Assembly (NCBI GenBank): GCA_031407385.1
Contig: JANOIH010000014.1
Span: forward strand, 1,555 to 65,554
Origin: Candidatus Altimarinota bacterium
GTDB lineage: Bacteria > Patescibacteriota > Gracilibacteria > BD1-5 > UBA2023
DNA: 64,000 nucleotides
Direction of reading: 5' to 3'
Positions 6,987 to 64,000 of the stretch are shown in pieces. Below the pieces are notes generated by a model. That model worked only from the letters and a program-made list of their open reading frames with translations. It was not told the origin of the DNA and searched no databases. The position numbers and the translations under genes are program-made. Positions within the stretch are counted from its first letter, which is position 1, and every line of letters starts with the position of its first letter.

Positions 6987-7448
6987 ATGGCCTTTAAGTC
7001 TTTTGGAATCAGTTTCGGTCATATGCGGGATAACCCTTCGGATGTTCGTATACTTGAACAACCTGCGAGTCTTCAGATGAACATAGTTGGGGCTCGCGTA
7101 AGTATGGTTAATTGAGAACCAGTTTCTAGTTATACAGATGTGGAGACTATTATGGATTCCATAAAGAGAGATACCCTTACATTAACTGTCCATCCAGTAG
7201 AAAATACTAAAGGATGTGTATTTGATAGATGATTGAATCAAGAGCTTATTGGCGTTACACTTCCAAAAATAATCTTTCCTAAGATTATAGGATGTGCCGT
7301 AGCACAAAACCCATGATATAAACCCTTAAAGGAGGCAGATAATGCTAAGTGGAATCAGATGGCCAATGTGCAAATATGTAAAGTATGTGATACGGTTAAA
7401 ATTGCGCTTACAAGACCTATGCCAAGTAAGGAGATTATTCAGGGCTAA
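6987..7448 (+). CDS. small hypothetical protein, possibly PDZ-like (AT-rich gene)
   Basis: 153 codons are open only if 3 in-frame TGA are sense. The segment VGARVSMVNGEPVSSYTDVETIMDSIKRDTLTLTV resembles a PDZ fold. TTGACA/TATAAT-like promoter about 60 nt upstream. TAA stop. Confidence 0.4.
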
Positions 7449-23696: not shown

Positions 23697-25586
23697 ATGA
23701 CTTATCTCCAGAAGATATTCTCCAATCCTGCCGAGTCACTCTCGATATTCACGCGTGATGAGATAGACGAGCTCGATGCTCGTATCTATGAGCGAGATGG
23801 CAAGCTCTATCTGAGTAGTTATTCGAGATGAGAAGAAGAGAAACAAGTCTGGAGTGATAAAAAATCTGCACCCGAAGAGATCGTGAGACAACTCTATCTG
23901 CGTGAGCTCCTGAAGAAATACAAGTATCCAAAAGAACGAGTGGATATAGAAAAATCTGTCCGATTCGGTCGTGAGACTAAGCGAGTCGATATCGTGATAT
24001 ATTCCGAGGACAACGAAACTCCGCACCTCATGGTTGAGGTCAAGGCTCCTCATGAGAAGAACGATGTCGAGCAACTTAAGAGCTATCTCAATGCTGATGG
24101 GACACCTTTCGGAGTTGCTACCAATGGGAAGTCTGTACTCATCCTCTATCGTCCATATCCGAAGGATTTCGATACACTCGCTGATATCCCGAAGTTCGGA
24201 GAGACGATCGATGATGTCCTCAGTCGTCGTATTATGCTCGCAGATCTGGTAGAGCCTAAGCAACTCAAAGAAGTCATCGAGAATATCGAAGAACTCGTAC
24301 TTGCGAATTCTGGATTCGATAGTTTTGATGAGATATTCAAGCTCATCTATGCCAAGCTCCATGATGAGAAGGAGTCTATAGAAAATCCCGATAGACCACT
24401 CGAATTTCGCAAGTCTCCGACTAAAGATGCCAAGAGAACTGAAGATGACATATTTAGGCTTTTTGATGAAGCAAAGAAACGATGGCCATGAGTATTCGAA
24501 AAAAGTGATAAGATCAAACTCCTTCCTGAGCATCTCTCTATCTGTGTAGGTGAGATCGAGACATTCAAGCTCCTCGGTACCAATCTGCAGGTCATCGATG
24601 AGGCATTCGAATATCTCATCCCTGATGTTGCCAAGAGTAAGAAGTGACAATACTTCACTCCTCGTATCGTGATCGATATGTGTGTCCGTATGATGCAACC
24701 AGGAGAAAAAGAAAAGGTCATCGATACTGCCTGTGGTTCGGGTGGGTTCCTCATCCATACGATGGAATATCTCAAAAAAAGACATAATTGGACGAATACC
24801 AAGATGTCCTCTTATGCAAAACAAAGCCTATTCGGGATCGATTTCGATGAGAAGTCATCGAAGATAGCTCGTGCTATGATGCTCATCGCCTGAGATGGGA
24901 AGAGTCATATCTATAAGGAGAATTCTCTCGATAGTGCCTCGTGGTCTGAAGAGTCAAAATCAGATTTCAAAAAAGAGGAACTCCTCACAGAGTTTGAGGA
25001 ATACTCGATGAATGAACAAAACAAAAAAGAATACCTTCACTTCAACTTCGATGTGCTCCTCGCGAATCCTCCGTTCGCAGGAGAGGTCAAAGAATCTGCG
25101 ACACTCGCCAAGTTCCAACTCGGTAAACATCCGAAAACAGGGAAAAATATCGACAATATCTCTCGGCATCTCCTCTTCATCGAACGCAACCTCAACTTCG
25201 TACGACCAGGTGGACGACTGGCTCTCGTACTACCACAGTGAGTATTCAACAATACGAGTGAGGAGTATATCCGCAACTTCATGATGGCACATGCTCGCAT
25301 CCTTGCTGTAGTTGGTATCGAGGCGAATAGCTTCAAGCCACATACAGGAACCAAGACAAGTGTGATATTCCTCCAGAAGTGGGATGCAGTGACCAATCCG
25401 AGGATCGAGAACTATCCGATATTCTTCGCTACATCGAAGATAGCATTCAAGAATAACTCATGAGACTATGTCTATCGCGATACGAGCTCACGCAATGTGG
25501 ATAATCTCCAATCTGACCTCCTCCAGATTGCTGAGGCTTTTGAGGTGTGGGGACGAGAGCAGGGATTTAGTTTTTTAAGTGAATAG
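23697..25586 (+). CDS. hsdM: type I-like N6-adenine DNA methyltransferase with N-terminal HSDR_N-like domain
   Basis: Motif I VIDTACGSGGFL and motif IV LANPPFAG. The N-terminal VDIVIYSEDNETPHLMVEVKAP resembles the HSDR_N fold. Five in-frame TGA. TAG stop at 25584-25586. 629 aa. Confidence 0.85.
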
Positions 25587-44053: not shown

Positions 44054-44075
44054 ACCTAGAGAGGTTTTTTGTTCC

Positions 44076-44238
44076 CGTCACCCCCGAAGGACAAGGAAAT
44101 CCACCGTTTCCGTCATTGCGAGGAACGAAGCAATCCAGCGTTTCTAGTTTTCGTCATTCTGAGGTTTCTGTAGCTCAGAATCTTCCTAACTTGTTTCAGA
44201 GTCCAATCCATGTACTTTTTGTAGAAAAAGTACCAAAA
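44076..44238 (+). repeat. GTCA-hairpin modular repeat array, copy A
   Basis: Units CGTCACCCCCGAAGG...ATCCACCGTTTC (44076-44110), CGTCATTGCGAGGAACGAAGCAATCCAGCGTTTC (44111-44144) and TCGTCATTCTGAGG..CTCAGAATC (44151-44186). Tail hairpin GTACTTTTT-gtag-AAAAAGTACCAAAA (44212-44238). Confidence 0.75.
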
Positions 44239-45590: not shown

Positions 45591-45614
45591 GATGCTTTGA
45601 TTATTTTGTGTACC

Positions 45615-45729
45615 AGTCACCCGCGAGGTACGAAGCAATCCAGTGTTCCTCGTTCCTGTCATTCCTGCGTAGGCAGGAATCCAGCGTTTCCTTTTCCTTC
45701 CGTACTTTTGTAACCAAAAGTACCAAAAG
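45615..45729 (+). repeat. GTCA-hairpin modular repeat array, copy B
   Basis: AGTCACCCGCGAGGTACGAAGCAATCCAGTGTTCC (45615-45649) and TGTCATTCCTGC-gtag-GCAGGAATCCAGCGTTTCC (45657-45691). Tail hairpin GTACTTTTG-taacc-AAAAGTACCAAAAG (45702-45729). Same order and orientation as copy A. Confidence 0.75.
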
Positions 45730-50105: not shown

Positions 50106-50921
50106 TTATACTGTCTGTATCAGAATCTCCCCGAATCGCTTTATTCCAGCATAATCAGCAAAAAATGAATACTCCCACTGGGGGTATTTTTGCACTTCTT
50201 GTTCTGCGATCTCTCGTTGGTCGAAACCGAATTCAAATAGTAGGCTGGTAGACTGGTAGGATGGTAGATTAGCTAGAGCAGATAACTCTTCGAATAGGCG
50301 TTCGTACATCTCGAATCCAGTTCGCTCTCAGCCGAAGAGTGCCAGACGAGGCTCATGAACCGTGTCGGCACTCATATTGATCCAGTCTTCCGCCTTGATA
50401 TAGGGGAGATTGGTGAGGAAGACTACGGAGGAGATAGAAGAGAGGAGATAGGAGATAGGCAGAGCAGAGAGCAGGTCAGAGACGATGAATTGGGCTCTCT
50501 TCTCTCCATAGTGAGCTCGGAAGTTCTGCTCGGCGACAGCGAGCGCCTCTGGAGATATATCGAGGAAGATCACCTCATCCGCAAGATCTGCGACACTCGT
50601 CCCGATTATCCCAGAGCCACAACCGATATCGATGACTATGGACTTGCTCTGTCATTTCGAGTAAAGAAAATCTGTTTCTGTGATTTTCGCAATCGATCCC
50701 GCTCAGCGGGACTGCGCTGTTTTCTGAGCAAGATGTCTCGGCTCCGTTATCACTTCGCTCGACATGACAGCAACTGAGAGGAGCTGACGCGCACGTCTCA
50801 CGAGGCTCTCTGTCTCCAGTCTCGGGATCAGGACATCAGGCGTCACGAGATAATCTCTACCGAAAAAGTTTACCTTTCACTCTATATATTCCACAGGATA
50901 AGTGTCGGGGAGAGAGGACAT
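50106..50921 (-). CDS. prmC: release-factor glutamine N5-methyltransferase (HemK/PrmC) carrying an in-frame repeat insertion
   Basis: VLIPRLETE, VIDIGCGSG and TNLPY (NPPY variant). Frame checked codon by codon across 50581-50820. It lacks the usual N-terminal helical domain. Confidence 0.85.
50649..50770. repeat. GTCA-hairpin repeat element, copy D (MITE-like, 13-bp terminal inverted repeats) inside prmC
   Basis: CTGTCATTTCGAG (50649-50661) versus CTCGACATGACAG (50758-50770), whose reverse complement is CTGTCATGTCGAG. Internal hairpin ATCCCGC-tcag-CGGGAC. Confidence 0.75.
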
Positions 50922-51846: not shown

Positions 51847-53628
51847 ATGCGTTTCCATATATCCCCACAAAAAAATAACAATAGGTATCAGCGTATCGTC
51901 GCCTCACTTGTACTCTCTCTGTTTCTCATGACTCCAATGGTCTGGACAAGTACGGCAATGGCTCGTACTGTAACTCCAACAACTCCTGTTCTCCAGCCTG
52001 GAATCCTCCAAGTCAGAAGTACGGCGGTCAGGACAACAGACAATATCAGCTATAAGCAGAAGGTAGTACTCGCGAGACAGCTCATGCAAGTAGCGAAGGC
52101 CAGTAACAAGCGTCTCTCATTCGTCAGTGCTATGCGTCAAGTGAATAAGACCCTTACAATCACACCAACGAAAATGCTGATCGCCAAGGCACATCTCCCA
52201 GCTAAGAAAACAACTCCAATTCCTGTACTCAACTCAGCTCCTACTGCTCCAGTAGTATATGCTGGTGGTGGAGGCGGTGGATCTACGAGTAGCTCGACCA
52301 CCTCGACTACGACGGTAGCAACTCCAACTCCAGTCACCACAACGGTATCTACGCCAGTCACCACGACGGTATCTACTCCAGTGACGACGACCGTATCATC
52401 TCCAGTCTCGGCTCCAGTAGTAGTCGCTCCTACTGCTCCAACTGCTCCGGCCCCAGTGGATCCAGTTGTAGTCGCTCCAGCTCCGACTGCTCCGGCCCCA
52501 GTAGAACCAGTTGTAGTCGCTCCGACTGCCCCAGCTCCGACTGCTCCAGTAGTAGTCGCTCCGACTGCCCCAGCTCCGACTGCCCCAGCTCCGACTGCTC
52601 CAGCTCCAGTGGCTACTCCGACAGGAACAACTCCGATCAATATCGTGAGTCCACAGGATGCAAATCTCGCGAAACTCTCCGAATACCAGAAGGTGATGTG
52701 AGGATTTGTCGCGGATAACCTGATGATATTCATGAATATGCCACAATCAGCAGCAGGGATAGATGGAGCGTCATACTATATGGCCAACATCATGAATGAA
52801 TATGCCAAATATGGGATCACTCCGATATTCGTATTCGAACCAACGGGTGACAATGGTGCTCAGCTCGATCTCGGCAAGCTCAAAAATGGTGACTACAGTG
52901 CCAATATGGAGCTCCTCTTCTCGAAGATCAAAAATGATCGAAAAGTAACAGAGGATAAGCTCGGACTCATGGTCCCATATCCTGAGATCAATACTCCAGC
53001 GTTCAATCGGGCGAACTTCGTCCCAGAGAATCTCCCTACTATGGTGAATATATTTTTCGATAGTATCAAAAAATCATATCCAAATGTGAAGGGTGGACTC
53101 CTCCTCGATGCGAAGTCATACGATGTAGATAAGAGTTGGGGGCAGGGTGTCGCTCGGAGTTTTGCTCCATATATCACGGGGATCAAGCCCGGATATATCC
53201 AGACATTCGGTCTTCAGGGATTCCCTTGGGCGAGCAATGATGCAAGCGTCAAGGTCTACGATCCAACAGTGTTCCTCCCGACGGGTATCACCGCAGAAGC
53301 GGCGAATATCCTCGGAACCAAGAATATCTGGTTCAATACCGGAACGATGAAGAGACAGTATCCAACGAACACAGTTAATGTGACTCCAGCAGAGCGAACG
53401 ACTACGTACAATGGTATCATCAACCAGGCGACAGCACTCCAATCACAAGGATATACGATGATGGTCCATATCTTTGCCCAGGACAAGTTCTCGATGGGAG
53501 AAGGGATCGATTGGTCTTACATAGAGAATGCCAATGATGGAGTATTGTCGGCCCATGAGGGCGTATTTGCTACATTCCTCAAACAGGCTCAGTCAAAAGG
53601 ACTCAAGGTCGGACTCTTCGATAGATAA
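51847..53628 (+). CDS. secreted protein with Pro/Thr/Ala/Val-rich linker and C-terminal putative glycoside-hydrolase-like domain
   Basis: ORFs 51847-52701 and 52723-53628 are in one frame, joined by TGA at 52699-52701. Signal/transmembrane segment at the N-terminus. The function of the C-terminal domain is a guess. Confidence 0.65.
52327..52610 (+). repeat. coding tandem repeats (TVSTPVTT about 3 times, then VVAPTAPAP-type units)
   Basis: Periodic CCAGTCACCAC.ACGGTATCTAC units with a 24-nt period, then GTAGTCGCTCCGACTGC... units of about 45 nt. Confidence 0.8.
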
Positions 53629-53682: not shown

Positions 53683-56600
53683 TTATGGAGAATAGAATGC
53701 TGCGACAATATCGCTCGCCGCCTTGCCACGTGTGACACCGTCAGATACTACGGCTACCATATCACCGGTAGCAGTCTTCTTGATCACGGCGATCAGCTTG
53801 TCGATCTCACCCTGCGAGATGGTATCATTGGGACGGAATCGGGCGTTTGACTTATTGATCCAGCCCATAGCGACACCGTAGTTGATATAGTTGATGAGAC
53901 TATGTTTTTTTGGTACATCACTGAATTTTTTCCCTACGGTTGTGACAGGAGTCGTGTATCCATGGGCGATCGAGAGTAACTTGATGAATTCACCACGAGA
54001 GATGAGTCGATCGGGAGAGACCTTGATCCCATTGTTCATCACTCAGGCTCGTACGAGGGTCTCGATCGCGGATCGCCATGGACTCGAGGCGAGATCACGA
54101 GCCAGGATAGTGATACCTGAGCTGATAGGAGCTCCGACTATACTGGTGGTACTAGGTACTGTAGTCGTAGTAGATGCAACAGAAGACGAGATAGATCATC
54201 CTCCATCTCCACCTCCACCTCATCATCATGTCCCTCCACTGGTGATACCTGTTCCTGTAGTCCCAGTGCTAGTAGTCCCAGTGCTAGTTGTACCGGTTCC
54301 AGTCGTCCCAGTTCAAGTCGTACCAGTTCCAGTAGTCCCAGTACCCGTCGTACCTGTTCCAGTTGTACCGGTTCCCGTCGTACCGGTTCCACTGCCGCCT
54401 CACCCAGGTATCACTATCGGAGTACCGACGATCCTGATATCATCGATCCAGACGAAGTCGTTGCTATCACTGAGATTCTCTCGGATACGCAGAGCAAATC
54501 ATGGGGCATCCGCGGCATCTGCAGGGAGCATGATAGAGTGAGAGGTCAGAGTCTCGGGTGTAGTTGATATCGGAGTTGGTATTGCTCAGATGCCGTTGCT
54601 GGTCGCGATCTCCGTATCGTCTGCCGCATAGAACATATGGACAGCGAGCGAGCTATCTATAGTCTTGATCGGTGTCCAGGTCGTACCATCGGTCGTATAC
54701 TCCAGTACCACTGAGTCTCACGCCTCCAGCGTGTCCCACTTGTAGCAGAACGAGAGACGGATATCGTTGTACCCGAGAGTTGAGACAGATCTCCTGAGAG
54801 TCTGATTGCCCGTTGGATCAGTTCCGACGATCTTCACGGCACGTAGATTGGTATCTGGTCCGAGACGACAGGTGCCATCACTCATGATAAAATTGGAACC
54901 CCTACTACTATCCCAAGCATCGAAAGTCTGATCCTCAAATCAACCAAAGAACAGAGTCTGAAGAGTAGGATTGCCTACCGGAGCGGAGATCGTGATGATG
55001 ATCGACGCTTGGGCCCCTTGTCCGAGAGAGTCCTCGACAGAATACGGGATCGTGACTCTACCGTTAAATCCTCCCACAGGAACAAATGTCACAATACCAC
55101 TCGATGGACTCACCGTCACTGTTCCTTCTGGTAGCACCAGAGTCGTCTGTGATTCGCTGATGAGTATATTGAGATCGAGAGTCGAGCTATAGAGTGAGTT
55201 GCCAGAGCCAAATGCCTGATCATTCGCGAGGATATCTGGTATCGTGAGAGTAGTATTGGTCACTCAGGTGACGATATCATCACGAGCAATCGGAGGAGCA
55301 AGGAGAGAAGTACCCCCCATCCATACATAGTTATCGGTAGTGATCCAACCAGTGCCTGATATACTATGATATACTGAGGCTGTTCTGGCTCAGGCTGGAG
55401 TCGTGAATGTCCGAGTGAAAGTCTGCCACACAGGAGACGCTGCAAGAGTACCAAGAGTATAGAATGAGTGTGTCCCATTGGCAAGGCCAATATCGACAAT
55501 CACATTTGATACAATATTGGATTGGTAACTATCTGAGAATATATATGGCGTATTCTCTGCTACGGATACAGGGTCAAATGCCCACTTTGCATCTCCGCTT
55601 ATATACCGAGTGATCTCTACTTTTGCAGCCCTTTGGCTAGTATCTCCGAGTACCGGGTATGTCCATACCTGCTCATTGTTCCCGAACCATCATCGGATCC
55701 AGTTATCTGGTGTATCTGGGAGTACTGTATTTGCTTCCATTCCTGGATTCCTGATGAGGTTCCCCGTCGTTACTGGAGAGTTGTTGAGATACATATTCAC
55801 CGAAGATGTGGACGCAAATCCACTCGGATCCGTGACCGTGAGGATGATCTCTACATAGATATCAGTCGCACTATGATCAGGAGCCACAAAAGTTGTCTCA
55901 GGGCCTGTCGCACTCTGGAGAATGTGCGTATGTATATTGTGATGGAGGAGGACTTGCCAGGCAAATCCAGAACCCGAGATAACTCCCGTCTCTGGATCTA
56001 CTCCCGTTCCTGAGAGCCGGATGATATCTCAGGTGTGATAGGTGGATCAATTGGTCGGTGATAGTATCGTCACTGAGGGTCTCTGATTGCCTGCGAATAT
56101 CCTCGTACTCCGCACATCGACTCCACCACTTCCATCTCGGACCGAGAGGATCGCATCGTAGGTACCATCTGCGATATAGGTATGAGTGACTAGGGTACCT
56201 GTAGCACTATTCCCATCACCAAAATCCCAACTATATGAGAGTGTATCTCCATCTGGATCACTCGATCCTGACGCAGAGAATGTGACTGTGATCGGCAGAG
56301 GTCACCCAGATATATCAGTGCTGAGAACCGCCAGTGGCTTCCTATTTCATAGGGTATATATCACTCGTTTGACCTCACCCGTATAGATCGCTATATAGTA
56401 GAGACTCCCGTCGGGGGCCGTCTTGATATCTACTGGTCACCCTGGATCTGTGATGAGGGATTCTTGAGAGATGATAGTATTGTTCGCACCGAGTGTGACG
56501 AGTGTCATCATGTTCAGAGCATAGTCACCATAGACGTATGATCCGATATATGCACTCGGGAATGCAGATCCGACGAAGTCACCCCCCACCACACTCCCCG

Positions 56601-57594
56601 CTCCTTGCGGACTGTGCTGATACTGGTAGAGTGGTGGAGTGACGCCTCCTGTAGTACTACATCCAGCAAGTCATCCAACAGTCGTACCTACTCACTCATA
56701 GCATGGCCATCCGAGGTTGACTCATCGGCCCACGATATCGAGCTCTTCCCAGGTACTCCAGCCGACATCACCACCGAATAGGATATTGGTCCCAGGCTGG
56801 AAAGCGAACCGAAACATATTCCTCACACCGAGAGCCCATACTTTCGACCTATTCGCATTCCCATTTCCATCATAAAATGGGTTGTCACTCGGAGCCGTTC
56901 CATCAGCTCTGATACGGATCACCTTGCCAGCGAGACTATCGAGACTCTGTGCCCGTAGAGACCTGACATCAGCAAAATCGAAGCTCGCACCATCTCAGAG
57001 TGATGCATAGAGATATCCATCTTGGCCGAACTGGAGTCCTCCTACCGAGTGGCTCGCATCATCAGAGGGGATACAGTCAGCGGTGACGGGGTAGTCCTCA
57101 CACGATGGAGCTACGAGAGTCCCTCATACGGTTCCCAGAAGTACGACCCTAGATGACCCGAGGGCAGTATCTCCAATGACGGTGACTCGTACGATCCGCC
57201 CCGTCTTGGGTCATGCGGTATTGGCCCCAGGGGAGTTCTCATAAGTATATGAGAGGTAGAGATACCCGTTCGTTGCAAAATTTGGATCGATTGCTATCCC
57301 GATGAGTCCACGATCTCCATAGGTATTCACATCGGTGAGGGTGATGACTGGGGTACTCGAGAGGGTTTCGTTTTTGATCACTCTGACAGCTCCTCACTTC
57401 TCAGCGACGAATATCCTCCCATCAGGAGCGAAGGCAAGGGCCGTAGGAATAGTGAGCCCAGAGACGACGCTCTGTGCCTCGAACCCACTTGCCGCAAAGA
57501 CGCCCGTGATATGCACCACGAGAGATAATACTCATATACTCAATCAGAGTACGCCTCTTGCGAGTAGAGAGATGAGAGATTGGAGAGGTGGCAT
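53683..57594 (-). CDS. 1303-aa surface protein: PQQ-type sugar-dehydrogenase-like beta-propeller, PKD domain, CBM-like domain, Gly/Thr linker and SLH-like C-terminus
   Basis: All codons checked: about 28 in-frame TGA and no TAA/TAG. Contains GDRGLIGIAIDPNF, DPDGDTLSYSWDFGDG (PKD) and a C-terminus ISRGEFIKLL...INYGVAMGW resembling SLH. ATG at 57592-57594. Confidence 0.8.
54196..54405 (-). repeat. coding Gly/Thr-rich tandem repeat (GTGTT about 10 times) and poly-Gly run
   Basis: 15-nt periodic units GGTACGACGGGAACC-type. Three consecutive TGA codons lie at 54220-54228. Confidence 0.8.
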
Positions 57595-63296: not shown

Positions 63297-64000
63297 ATGA
63301 ACATCCTCTCTTCTCCATCACACACTACACTCCAGTCTCTCTGGTGGGATGAGTTCACTCGAGCACTTACGACCCTCGCAACTCAAGATGAGATATATAT
63401 CGGACTCTCAGGTGGATCATCACTCGATATCTTCTATGCGCATCTTCGCACTCATCTCTACTCTATCGATACACAGACGCGTAGTCGCTTGCGGTTCTGC
63501 CTCCTCGATGAGCGTATCGTGAGCGAGGATCATCCTGACTCGAATCTGTGACAGCTTCGCAAAAAATTCCTGACAGCGCTCGTGGAAGAGATGATTATCA
63601 GTGAAGATCAGATCATCTCTGTGTTTCCGTCATCGCGAAGTATGATCAGGTCCAGCGCTTCTGAAAATACTGAGCATGGATTGCTTCGTTCCTCGCAATG
63701 ACAGGAACAAGAGGAGTCATCTCTAGCAAAGTCCTACTCTCTCCTCATCCCTAGGGTCGACATCGCACTCGTCTGAGTCGGACCAGATGGACATATCGCA
63801 TCCCTCTTCCCACATCATCCACTCCTGGACTCTACTCATGTATGATATCTGGAGATCACTGATTCACCGAAGCTACCATCACATCGTATCACCGTCTCAC
63901 CTGCCATGCTCAGATCTGCACCGTACGTCTTCGTCGCGTTCATGCGAGGCAAAGAAGTTGCATATAAACAGTTCCAGGATAACACTCTATCTGTGGCGGA
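63297..64000 (+). CDS. pgl: 6-phosphogluconolactonase (3' end off window) carrying an in-frame repeat insertion
   Basis: GLSGGSS... and V-G-VGPDGHIASLFP. It starts 3 nt after the zwf stop. Frame is open to the window end with TGA as sense. Confidence 0.85.
63629..63702. repeat. GTCA-hairpin repeat element, copy C, inside pgl
   Basis: GTCATCGCGAAG (63629-63640) ... GGATTGCTTCGTTCCTCGCAATGAC (to 63702). The latter is the exact reverse complement of the GTCATTGCGAGGAACGAAGCAATCC unit at 44112-44136. Confidence 0.75.

Follow-up and report, generated by a model that had tools for sequence, protein, structure and literature searches.

The gene for 6-phosphogluconolactonase (pgl) was found to carry an insert in a 64,000-nt stretch of DNA from Candidatus Altimarinota bacterium (contig JANOIH010000014.1 of assembly GCA_031407385.1, positions 1,555 to 65,554 of the forward strand), referred to as the window in the following. 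From its sequence, the insert was identified as a head-to-head dimer of the CGTC-tagged superfamily of repetitive extragenic palindromes (REPs). The best explanation, given a probability of about 0.85, is that a CGTC-tagged REP dimer was inserted into a loop of pgl in the ancestor of a clade using genetic code 25, and that it has persisted in frame and is translated. In-frame insertion into genes has already been documented for CGTC REPs and for the Rickettsia palindromic elements (RPEs).

The Insert in pgl

The window contains the first 234 codons of the pgl coding sequence (63297..64000, plus strand), which runs past the window end and is translated with table 25 as a single open frame. This frame matches homologues of PF01182 at E=1e-80 in a homology search, and a comparison of 34 aligned pgl proteins shows that the window protein has kept 15 of the 15 invariant columns. 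Compared to the orthologues P0015-P0049, which lack it, the window gene contains a net in-frame insertion of 81 nt (63624..63704, plus strand), with 27 codons encoding FPSSRSMIRSSASENTEHGLLRSSQGQ (FPSS...SQGQ). The edges of the insertion at 63624 and 63704 are accurate to about one codon, and the net gain amounts to 27-28 codons compared to orthologues with an empty site.

The insert consists of an inverted pair of REP units. The left unit (63628..63655, plus strand) is composed of a CGTC tag at 63628-63631, a 20-nt core ATCGCGAAGTATGATCAGGT and the tail CCAG, and is matched by the unit profile with an nhmmer E-value of 3e-8. Its stem has decayed in the window gene, whereas the orthologous unit of L099 (CAYSEP010000068.1), a metagenome-assembled genome (MAG) representing its species, keeps a 5-bp stem, ATCGC/GCGAT. 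The right unit (63676..63703, minus strand) reads as a TGTC tag (the complement of 63700-63703), ATTGC-GAGGAACGAA-GCAAT and CCAT, with a core identical to an intergenic unit at 44112-44136. Between both units lies a spacer of about 20 nt (63656..63675), which was read from the sequence and is expected to form the apical part of a long hairpin. The tags are placed outside, at 63628 for the left and 63703 for the right unit, the cores are about 20-28 nt apart, and the same layout was found in at least 39 dimers from other phyla.

In the initial annotation, an exact reverse complement of the intergenic unit had been located within the 6-phosphogluconolactonase frame. Both parts of this claim were confirmed. 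The 25-mer GTCATTGCGAGGAACGAAGCAATCC is present exactly twice in the window, at 44112-44136 (plus strand, intergenic) and at 63678-63702 (minus strand), and no match to it was obtained in 100 dinucleotide shuffles with up to 3 mismatches permitted; the segment 63629-63702 lies inside the frame starting at 63297. The description as a 74-bp element adding about 25 residues without a frameshift or a stop had to be revised in its details. The repeat is real and in frame; however, the 74 bp from GTCAT to ATGAC are no multiple of 3, the net insertion comprises 81 nt and 27 codons, the inverted repeat comprises 86 nt with two units instead of one, and the segment is free of stops only under code 25.

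The full inverted repeat GTTTCCGTCAT...ATGACAGGAAC (GTTTCC...GGAAC; 63623..63708) can be folded as one long hairpin according to RNA fold prediction. For the region 63610-63720 a folding energy of -38.3 kcal/mol was calculated (z=-2.8), and none of 200 shuffled sequences folded as well. The inserts of orthologous pgl genes fold likewise in 8 of 8 cases tested, with z values from -2.3 to -9.3.

The pgl Gene and the Genetic Code

With the standard code, four TGA codons break the pgl frame starting with ATG at 63297. The frame is open only when TGA is read as a sense codon, and table 25 gives the protein sequence ...QIISVFPSSRSMIRSSASENTEHGLLRSSQGQEQEE...LVGVGPDGHIASLFP. One of the TGA codons is located at the conserved first glycine of the GxGxDGH motif (LV-TGA-VGPDGH), and the named pgl homologues belong to Gracilibacteria and Absconditabacteria (Vampirococcus). 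Because of the TGA at this conserved glycine and the origin of the homologues, the sequence indicates that the genome uses code 25, with TGA coding for glycine. Examples of sense TGA codons are found at 63549-63551, 63699-63701 and 63774-63776.

The second of these codons (63699..63701, plus strand) originates from the tag of the right REP unit, where it is read with a frame offset of 0 as ..CAA TGA CAG..; it codes for glycine in code 25, whereas the standard code would read it as a stop. The resulting ..[G/W]Q junction is kept in all pgl orthologues bearing the insert except two. Under code 25, the pgl dimer is open in 6 of 6 frames (p=0.004), compared to 1 of 6 under code 11.

The gnd-zwf-pgl operon ends with pgl, and an identical gene order was identified in the related contigs L002, L004 and L209. 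Under table 11, gene calling breaks up zwf, pgl and gnd, among other genes, and fragmented calls of this kind are present in public assemblies of the organism (for example, the Logan contig L001).

Age and Probable Translation of the Insert

In the alignment of 34 pgl proteins, 17 more distant orthologues of the Gracilibacteria and Absconditabacteria type have a loop of 11-12 residues at the position of the insert, between the end of the QI(I/L)SV strand and the YS motif. In contrast, this loop is longer by 7-47 residues, always in frame, in the window protein and in the 14 database relatives closest to it (48-62% identity). The L099 MAG, identified in a scan of DNA sequences, also bears the insert in a complete pgl gene. 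A metagenome scan for further relatives gave, among the matches listed, identities of at most 55%, mostly of 24-37%. In a neighbour-joining tree calculated without the loop columns, all insert-bearing pgl sequences are grouped in one clade, with P0015 as a sister carrying an empty site (QILGIGYTDHIAKEYS). A single ancestral insertion in this clade would be the simplest history.

An ancestral presence of the segment in pgl orthologues had initially been named as an observation that would speak against an insertion. The segment is indeed ancestral within the clade, where the site is shared, but not beyond it, as P0015 and the 17 distant orthologues have an empty site. A recent or private insertion into the window gene is contradicted by an occupied site common to the whole clade. 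pgl itself was rejected as the source of the repeat, because the outgroups lack the segment and the 25-mer is present across bacterial phyla.

Ten of the pgl loci were checked on the DNA level, and eight different loop lengths were identified, all in frame and free of stops. The insert would be translated together with pgl, because frame and absence of stops have been kept across these eight lengths, which would not have been maintained if the hairpin were bypassed. For the structure of the encoded peptide, an AlphaFold2 model was made of the homologue P0006, which contains the same type of dimer as the window pgl. The mean predicted local distance difference test (pLDDT) score of this model is 90. 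Because the insert reaches values of only 51-62 compared to 94-98 for the core, it is predicted to be an unstructured excursion from an intact pgl fold, probably a floppy loop at the surface.

An untranslated segment, as a result of ribosome bypass, of removal from the mRNA or of an assembly artefact at the repeat, is considered extremely unlikely. The strong predicted hairpins (-32 to -46 kcal/mol) would fit a bypass, and an independent short-read assembly of the same genome, the Logan contig L001 (SRR20217198), stops at window position 63701, inside the dimer. Such a stop is as expected for a multi-copy repeat, at which assemblies commonly break. Selection for frame and for the absence of stops over eight insert lengths would not be expected for a skipped segment, pgl continues in frame downstream of the element, and the independent MAG L099 contains the same dimer at the same place in a complete gene.

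The Repeat Family

For CGTC-tagged REPs, Di Nocera, De Gregorio and Rocco (2013; BMC Genomics 14:522, PMC3733652) described an unpaired CGTC/TGTC tag (with the variants TGTC and CCTC), stems starting with A-T and a 3-nt tail. According to the same survey, these REPs are mostly present as head-to-head dimers with the tags outside and spacers of 20-100 bp, a head-to-tail arrangement is negligible, and no transposase is known. The family includes dRS3/NTS of Neisseria and RPE-4 and RPE-6 of Rickettsia, and intragenic dimers were shown to encode 20-30 residues in housekeeping proteins. In bacteria with the standard code, five frames are used, resulting in the peptides VIPAKAGI, SFPRKRES, CHSRESGNP, IPAFAGMT and DSRFRGND, and the frame containing TGA necessarily is never used.

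The pgl insert shares with these elements the tag, the A-T start of the stem, the C-rich 3-nt tail and the organization as an intragenic head-to-head dimer. Window units outside pgl are likewise tagged with CGTC or TGTC, and AGTC was found in one degenerate unit. In contrast, the host is a Patescibacterium with code 25, from a phylum outside the survey of Di Nocera and coworkers, the intergenic copies are organized in head-to-tail arrays, and the TGA-containing frame is used. The commonest variant also differs by a 5-bp stem and a 10-nt loop, though the core has 20 nt here as well. The right unit of pgl and its twin at 44111 are of this type, with five perfect pairs (ATTGC/GCAAT) and a 10-nt loop in a core that again has 20 nt. 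In the intergenic regions, an 8-bp stem was identified both with a 4-nt loop (45657-45681) and with a 10-nt loop (44152-44182).

A second relation exists to the NTS of Neisseria. Chenal et al. (2025; Nat Commun 16:2388, PMC11893778) showed that NTS (CGTCATTCCCGCGMAVGCGGGAATCYRG) is bound and cut as single-stranded DNA (ssDNA) by the small GIY-YIG nuclease SsnA, the positions that proved critical being the GTC that precedes the palindrome and the C that directly follows it. Motifs similar to NTS accompany ssn genes across phyla, NTS and Ssn modulate transformation in Neisseria meningitidis, and the NTS-ssn-NTS layout resembles an insertion sequence (PMC11893778). The flanks CGTCATT...AATCCAG of the window units are identical to those of the NTS consensus, and the hairpin core, the critical GTC and C and the spread across phyla are shared. 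The sequence of the palindrome differs, and intragenic copies make up 2% of NTS in N. meningitidis, compared to two of four REP loci in the 64 kb analysed here. The unit at 45657-45684 agrees with the NTS consensus in 24 of 28 positions, two of the four mismatches being one compensatory stem pair; it is the sole such match in the window. For the unit at 44111, 7 mismatches were counted, none of them in the 7-nt flanks, compared to 9 for the right and 13 for the left unit of pgl; background 28-mers have at least 10, with few exceptions. The window units are probable members of the Ssn-related motifs (SRM), the group of motifs to which NTS belongs.

The distribution of the repeat was determined by a scan with GTCATTGCGARGNNNGAAGCAATCC of one genome per prokaryotic species, and at least 120 loci were obtained. 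Among the matches listed are Mucilaginibacter, Pedobacter, Flavobacterium, Tannerella and Prevotellaceae of the Bacteroidota, Comamonadaceae, Cyanobacteria and Anaerolineaceae (Chloroflexota), and from the candidate phyla radiation Peregrinibacteria, Paceibacterota, Buchananbacteria and Gracilibacteria. Usually, the matches lie within an inverted pair with the tags outside and a spacer of 10-70 nt. The 25-mer GTCATTGCGAGG[A/T/C]ACGAAGCAATCC is nearly invariant over at least six bacterial phyla, a striking conservation for a non-coding repeat, and it was also identified in 12 stretches on 10 viral contigs of IMG/VR. A search of Rfam, with the gathering threshold on the window and in E-value mode on the repeat loci, identified one tRNA only and no family for the units, and a literature search with the exact DNA strings of the pgl variant gave unrelated primer matches only.

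Two further systems are comparable. RPE-1 of Rickettsia, in the work of Ogata and coworkers from 2000 and 2002, is reportedly about 100-150 bp long, with a consensus of its own and a distribution restricted to Rickettsia. Like RPE-1, the pgl insert belongs to selfish palindromic repeats which are present in frame in unrelated conserved genes, translated, and tolerated on protein surfaces. As expected for an insertion of the Rickettsia type, the insert is absent from the outgroup orthologues, the frame is kept, the region is flexible and the invariant pgl residues are intact. Unlike RPE-1, the insert is a dimer of 81-86 bp built from 28-nt units of a pan-bacterial family. The REPINs are said to be associated with REP-associated tyrosine transposases (RAYTs) and to consist of GTAG REPs, as reported by Nunvar in 2010 and by Bertels and Rainey in 2011. 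In both cases, two inverted REPs with a short spacer make up one long hairpin, which is regarded as the mobile unit. RAYT-associated REPs are confined to single species, in contrast to the 25-mer described here, which is nearly invariant across phyla.

Other classes of elements were rejected. A REPIN/RAYT origin does not agree with a CGTC/TGTC tag instead of GTAG, and in a CRISPR array the units would not abut without spacers. The insert is too small for an intein or an intron and lacks their motifs. For a miniature inverted-repeat transposable element, inverted termini are present but a target-site duplication was not seen.

Turnover of the Insert

Although the pgl site is occupied across the clade, the similarity of the inserts is decoupled from that of the host genes. 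Between the window and L099, the 27 insert codons are identical to 89% on the amino acid level, 85% on the nucleotide level and 70% in third positions, compared to 61%, 64% and 47%, respectively, for the rest of pgl; the highest value for any other stretch of 27 codons in pgl is at most 76.5% nucleotide identity. When whole genes and insert loops are compared, the values for this pair are 63% and 80% nucleotide identity, and the tract of high similarity is limited to the dimer. For P0003 and P0011, 63% identity of the gene is found with 76% in the loop (81% in third positions), and for P0008 and P0012, 66% with 92%. The opposite was found for L099, P0003 and P0008, which in pairwise comparison share 87% in the gene and 42-63% in the loop and carry three different types of dimers. 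Likewise, the window and P0001 share 75% in the gene and 34% in the loop. In P0008 (L004, about 7090-7120), the left unit contains a 27-nt insertion in the hairpin loop compared to the otherwise about 95% identical insert of P0012, a nested insertion.

These values bear on a possible role of the loop as a peptide. Recruitment as an interaction surface or regulatory loop of 6-phosphogluconolactonase, with selection on the protein level, would explain that the frame has been kept over a long divergence, and for the RPE peptides of Rickettsia such a role was proposed by Claverie and Ogata, according to a review citing this proposal. It is nevertheless very unlikely. Near-identical host proteins carry wholly different peptides, such as FPSSRS...LLRSSQGQ, VIPATRSPKYY...DSVINTEGQ and FPSCGDTK...SFLPSGGQ, and third positions are conserved wherever the insert is conserved. 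AlphaFold2 gives the insert no confident structure, and the sister lineage sequences are devoid of it.

A role on the level of the nucleic acid, either as an mRNA hairpin tuning translation or decay of pgl or as an ssDNA site for an Ssn-type nuclease restricting or steering recombination of incoming DNA, like NTS in Neisseria, is also regarded as unlikely. In its favour, the insert is the most conserved stretch of pgl between the window and L099 at the nucleotide level and in third positions, and hairpin potential is kept in 8 of 8 orthologous inserts despite their differing sequences. The site is occupied across a clade in which pgl proteins are only about 50-60% identical, relatives also carry REP units in gnd and between zwf and pgl, and the modulation of transformation by NTS and Ssn provides a precedent. 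However, the left unit in the window is stemless, and P0001 and P0014 lack the right unit. Conversion by other copies would equally explain the high identity, the right unit being identical to the copy at 44112. Ssn binds neither RNA nor double-stranded DNA, and an ssn gene was not found in the window, in a search that had no positive control. A pgl-specific role is further disfavoured by insertions of the same kind in prmC and gnd.

Other Copies and Their Reading Frames

In total, at least nine REP units were identified in the window, at four loci, two of which are located inside genes. By a strict definition (YGTCAY tag, perfect stem of at least 5 bp, trailing C), five matches were obtained in the window, all of them in the four REP loci; 1.15 were expected, and none of 60 shuffles gave more than 4. 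A loose definition (tag and 5-bp stem, without the AT/AY constraint) gave no enrichment, with 4 matches compared to 3.5 in shuffles.

Both intergenic loci were identified by the unit profile and the sequence. The first (44071..44188, plus strand) is a head-to-tail array of three units, including the source-like copy of the right unit of pgl. The second (45610..45692, plus strand) contains two units in head-to-tail order and is located between uppS and a gene for a polyprenyl synthase. Both arrays have a period of 41 nt, and consecutive units overlap, the 3' AGCGTTTCC of the one with the 5' GTTTCC of the other. In these intergenic arrays, TAA or TAG closes one, two or three of the six frames.

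The second intragenic dimer (about 50645..50775, minus strand), identified by sequence and folding, is also organized head to head and is located in prmC, with TGTC tags outside, a spacer containing a small hairpin of its own and an in-frame ..AAA TGA CAG.. junction. The prmC gene lies at 50106-50921 (minus strand), and PrmC has about 40 residues more than Thermotoga maritima HemK, the extra residues originating from the inverted pair; for residues 49-94, T. maritima HemK has no match and bridges the gap with 6 residues. The initial annotation refers to an insertion in prmC, and this insertion was confirmed. Single reverse REP units were identified in frame in gnd of two relatives, in L002 (771-811) with 18 residues, MTEQGNAGFLPPQEGQKP, and in L004 (3790-3819) at a different site, DARFLPPQEGREQENGS; both are absent from gnd of the window, which is highly similar to that of L002.

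For in-frame insertions, two explanations had been offered, namely that the element is selected to be compatible with coding, or that only in-frame and stop-free insertions survive. Lengths modulo 3 were distributed as 8/15/16 among 39 dimers from other phyla that are of the same variant and likewise organized head to head. Because the dimer lengths show no preference for multiples of 3, survivorship is favoured, and the in-frame copies are regarded as survivors and not as designed, aided by stop-poor arms and by the recoded TGA. Of the idea of a selected compatibility, a small intrinsic contribution is left: the same 39 dimers are somewhat poor in TAA and TAG, with 3.8 open frames of six compared to 2.5 in shuffles.

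The reverse unit is read as ...(Q/E/K)-TGA-(Q/R) in four of four independent intragenic events of this lineage, namely in pgl at 63699-63701, in prmC at 50650-50660 on the minus strand, and at the two gnd sites. With an expectation of 1/3 for the TGA frame, this corresponds to p of about 0.01, and at n=4 the bias is only a lead. As a speculation that is rather unlikely to hold, the reassignment of TGA to glycine might have opened coding sequences to the hairpin repeat, and the pgl dimer might be an exchangeable cassette that is swapped among lineages faster than the gene diverges, possibly by hairpin-directed ssDNA recombination.

Apart from the REP loci, coding tandem repeats with 9- or 15-nt steps were identified at 52235-52617 and 54216-54404, the latter strictly with 15 nt. 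They are located in the very long open reading frames 51847-53628 (plus strand) and 53683-57594 (minus strand), which probably code for low-complexity surface proteins. A large open reading frame at 23697-25586 contains an NPPF motif, which is typical of N6-adenine DNA methyltransferases of the restriction-modification type.

Proposed History of the Element

Insertion of a REP dimer into pgl and its subsequent maintenance probably proceeded as follows. The dimer would have entered the loop-coding part of pgl in the ancestor of a clade of Patescibacteria with TGA coding for glycine. Its persistence would be explained by a whole number of codons, the absence of in-frame TAA and TAG, and a single in-frame TGA read as glycine. 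The insert would be transcribed and translated with pgl, so that the enzyme, intact in its other parts, would bear about 27 residues protruding from its surface; the peptide would have no function of its own and would be a passenger. REP units might be spread or exchanged as ssDNA hairpins by an enzyme acting in trans, for which a GIY-YIG nuclease of the Ssn type is the candidate from the literature. The dimer at the pgl site may have been replaced repeatedly, by conversion or recombination with other copies or lineages.

Several observations weigh against an inserted CGTC REP dimer that moves in this way. No target-site duplication is visible at the pgl insert, the flanks GTGTTTC|...|GGAACAAG being inverted and not direct. 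The pgl units miss the sizes published for the CGTC families 1-4 (8-9 bp stem, 4-5 nt loop), in addition to the left unit being stemless. The published SRM expression, HGTCWYN(0-2)YYVSBRHN(0-5)WNVSBRGN(0-2)RNCYNB, has no match in the window compared to 0.31 expected by chance; this hand-made expression is derived from 29 genomes and does not cover the stem variants found in the window. Searches for an ssn or GIY-YIG gene by phmmer with three approximate queries and by a motif regular expression, without a positive control, gave no match in the window, which represents about 5% of a genome of about 1 Mb, nor in relatives with code 25 and the 120 loci of other phyla. A gene for a Y1 transposase or RAYT was not seen in the window or in related loci, likewise without a positive control. 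Finally, the similar tract of P0008 and P0012 reaches about 40 nt past the REPs on each side, which fits recombination between lineages better than re-insertion. Because the tract shared by the window and L099 stays within the dimer and that of P0008 and P0012 extends into the flanks, conversion from other REP copies and recombination between lineages both seem to contribute.

Implications

With the insertion in pgl, selfish palindromes in coding genes, which have been described mainly for Rickettsia, are also found in TGA-recoded bacteria of the candidate phyla with their reduced genomes. Intragenic palindromes are thereby linked to the CGTC-REP/NTS family, for which the cognate ssDNA nuclease was identified only in 2025. 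For the annotation of these genomes, it is of importance that the inserts and the alternative code together disrupt gene calls and assemblies, as seen for pgl split under table 11 and for the end of the Logan contig. With a fixed site and interchangeable dimers, pgl provides a natural system for the movement and homogenisation of hairpins. If the bias for the TGA frame were found genome-wide, it would represent an unusual tie between a change of the genetic code and the niche of a mobile element.

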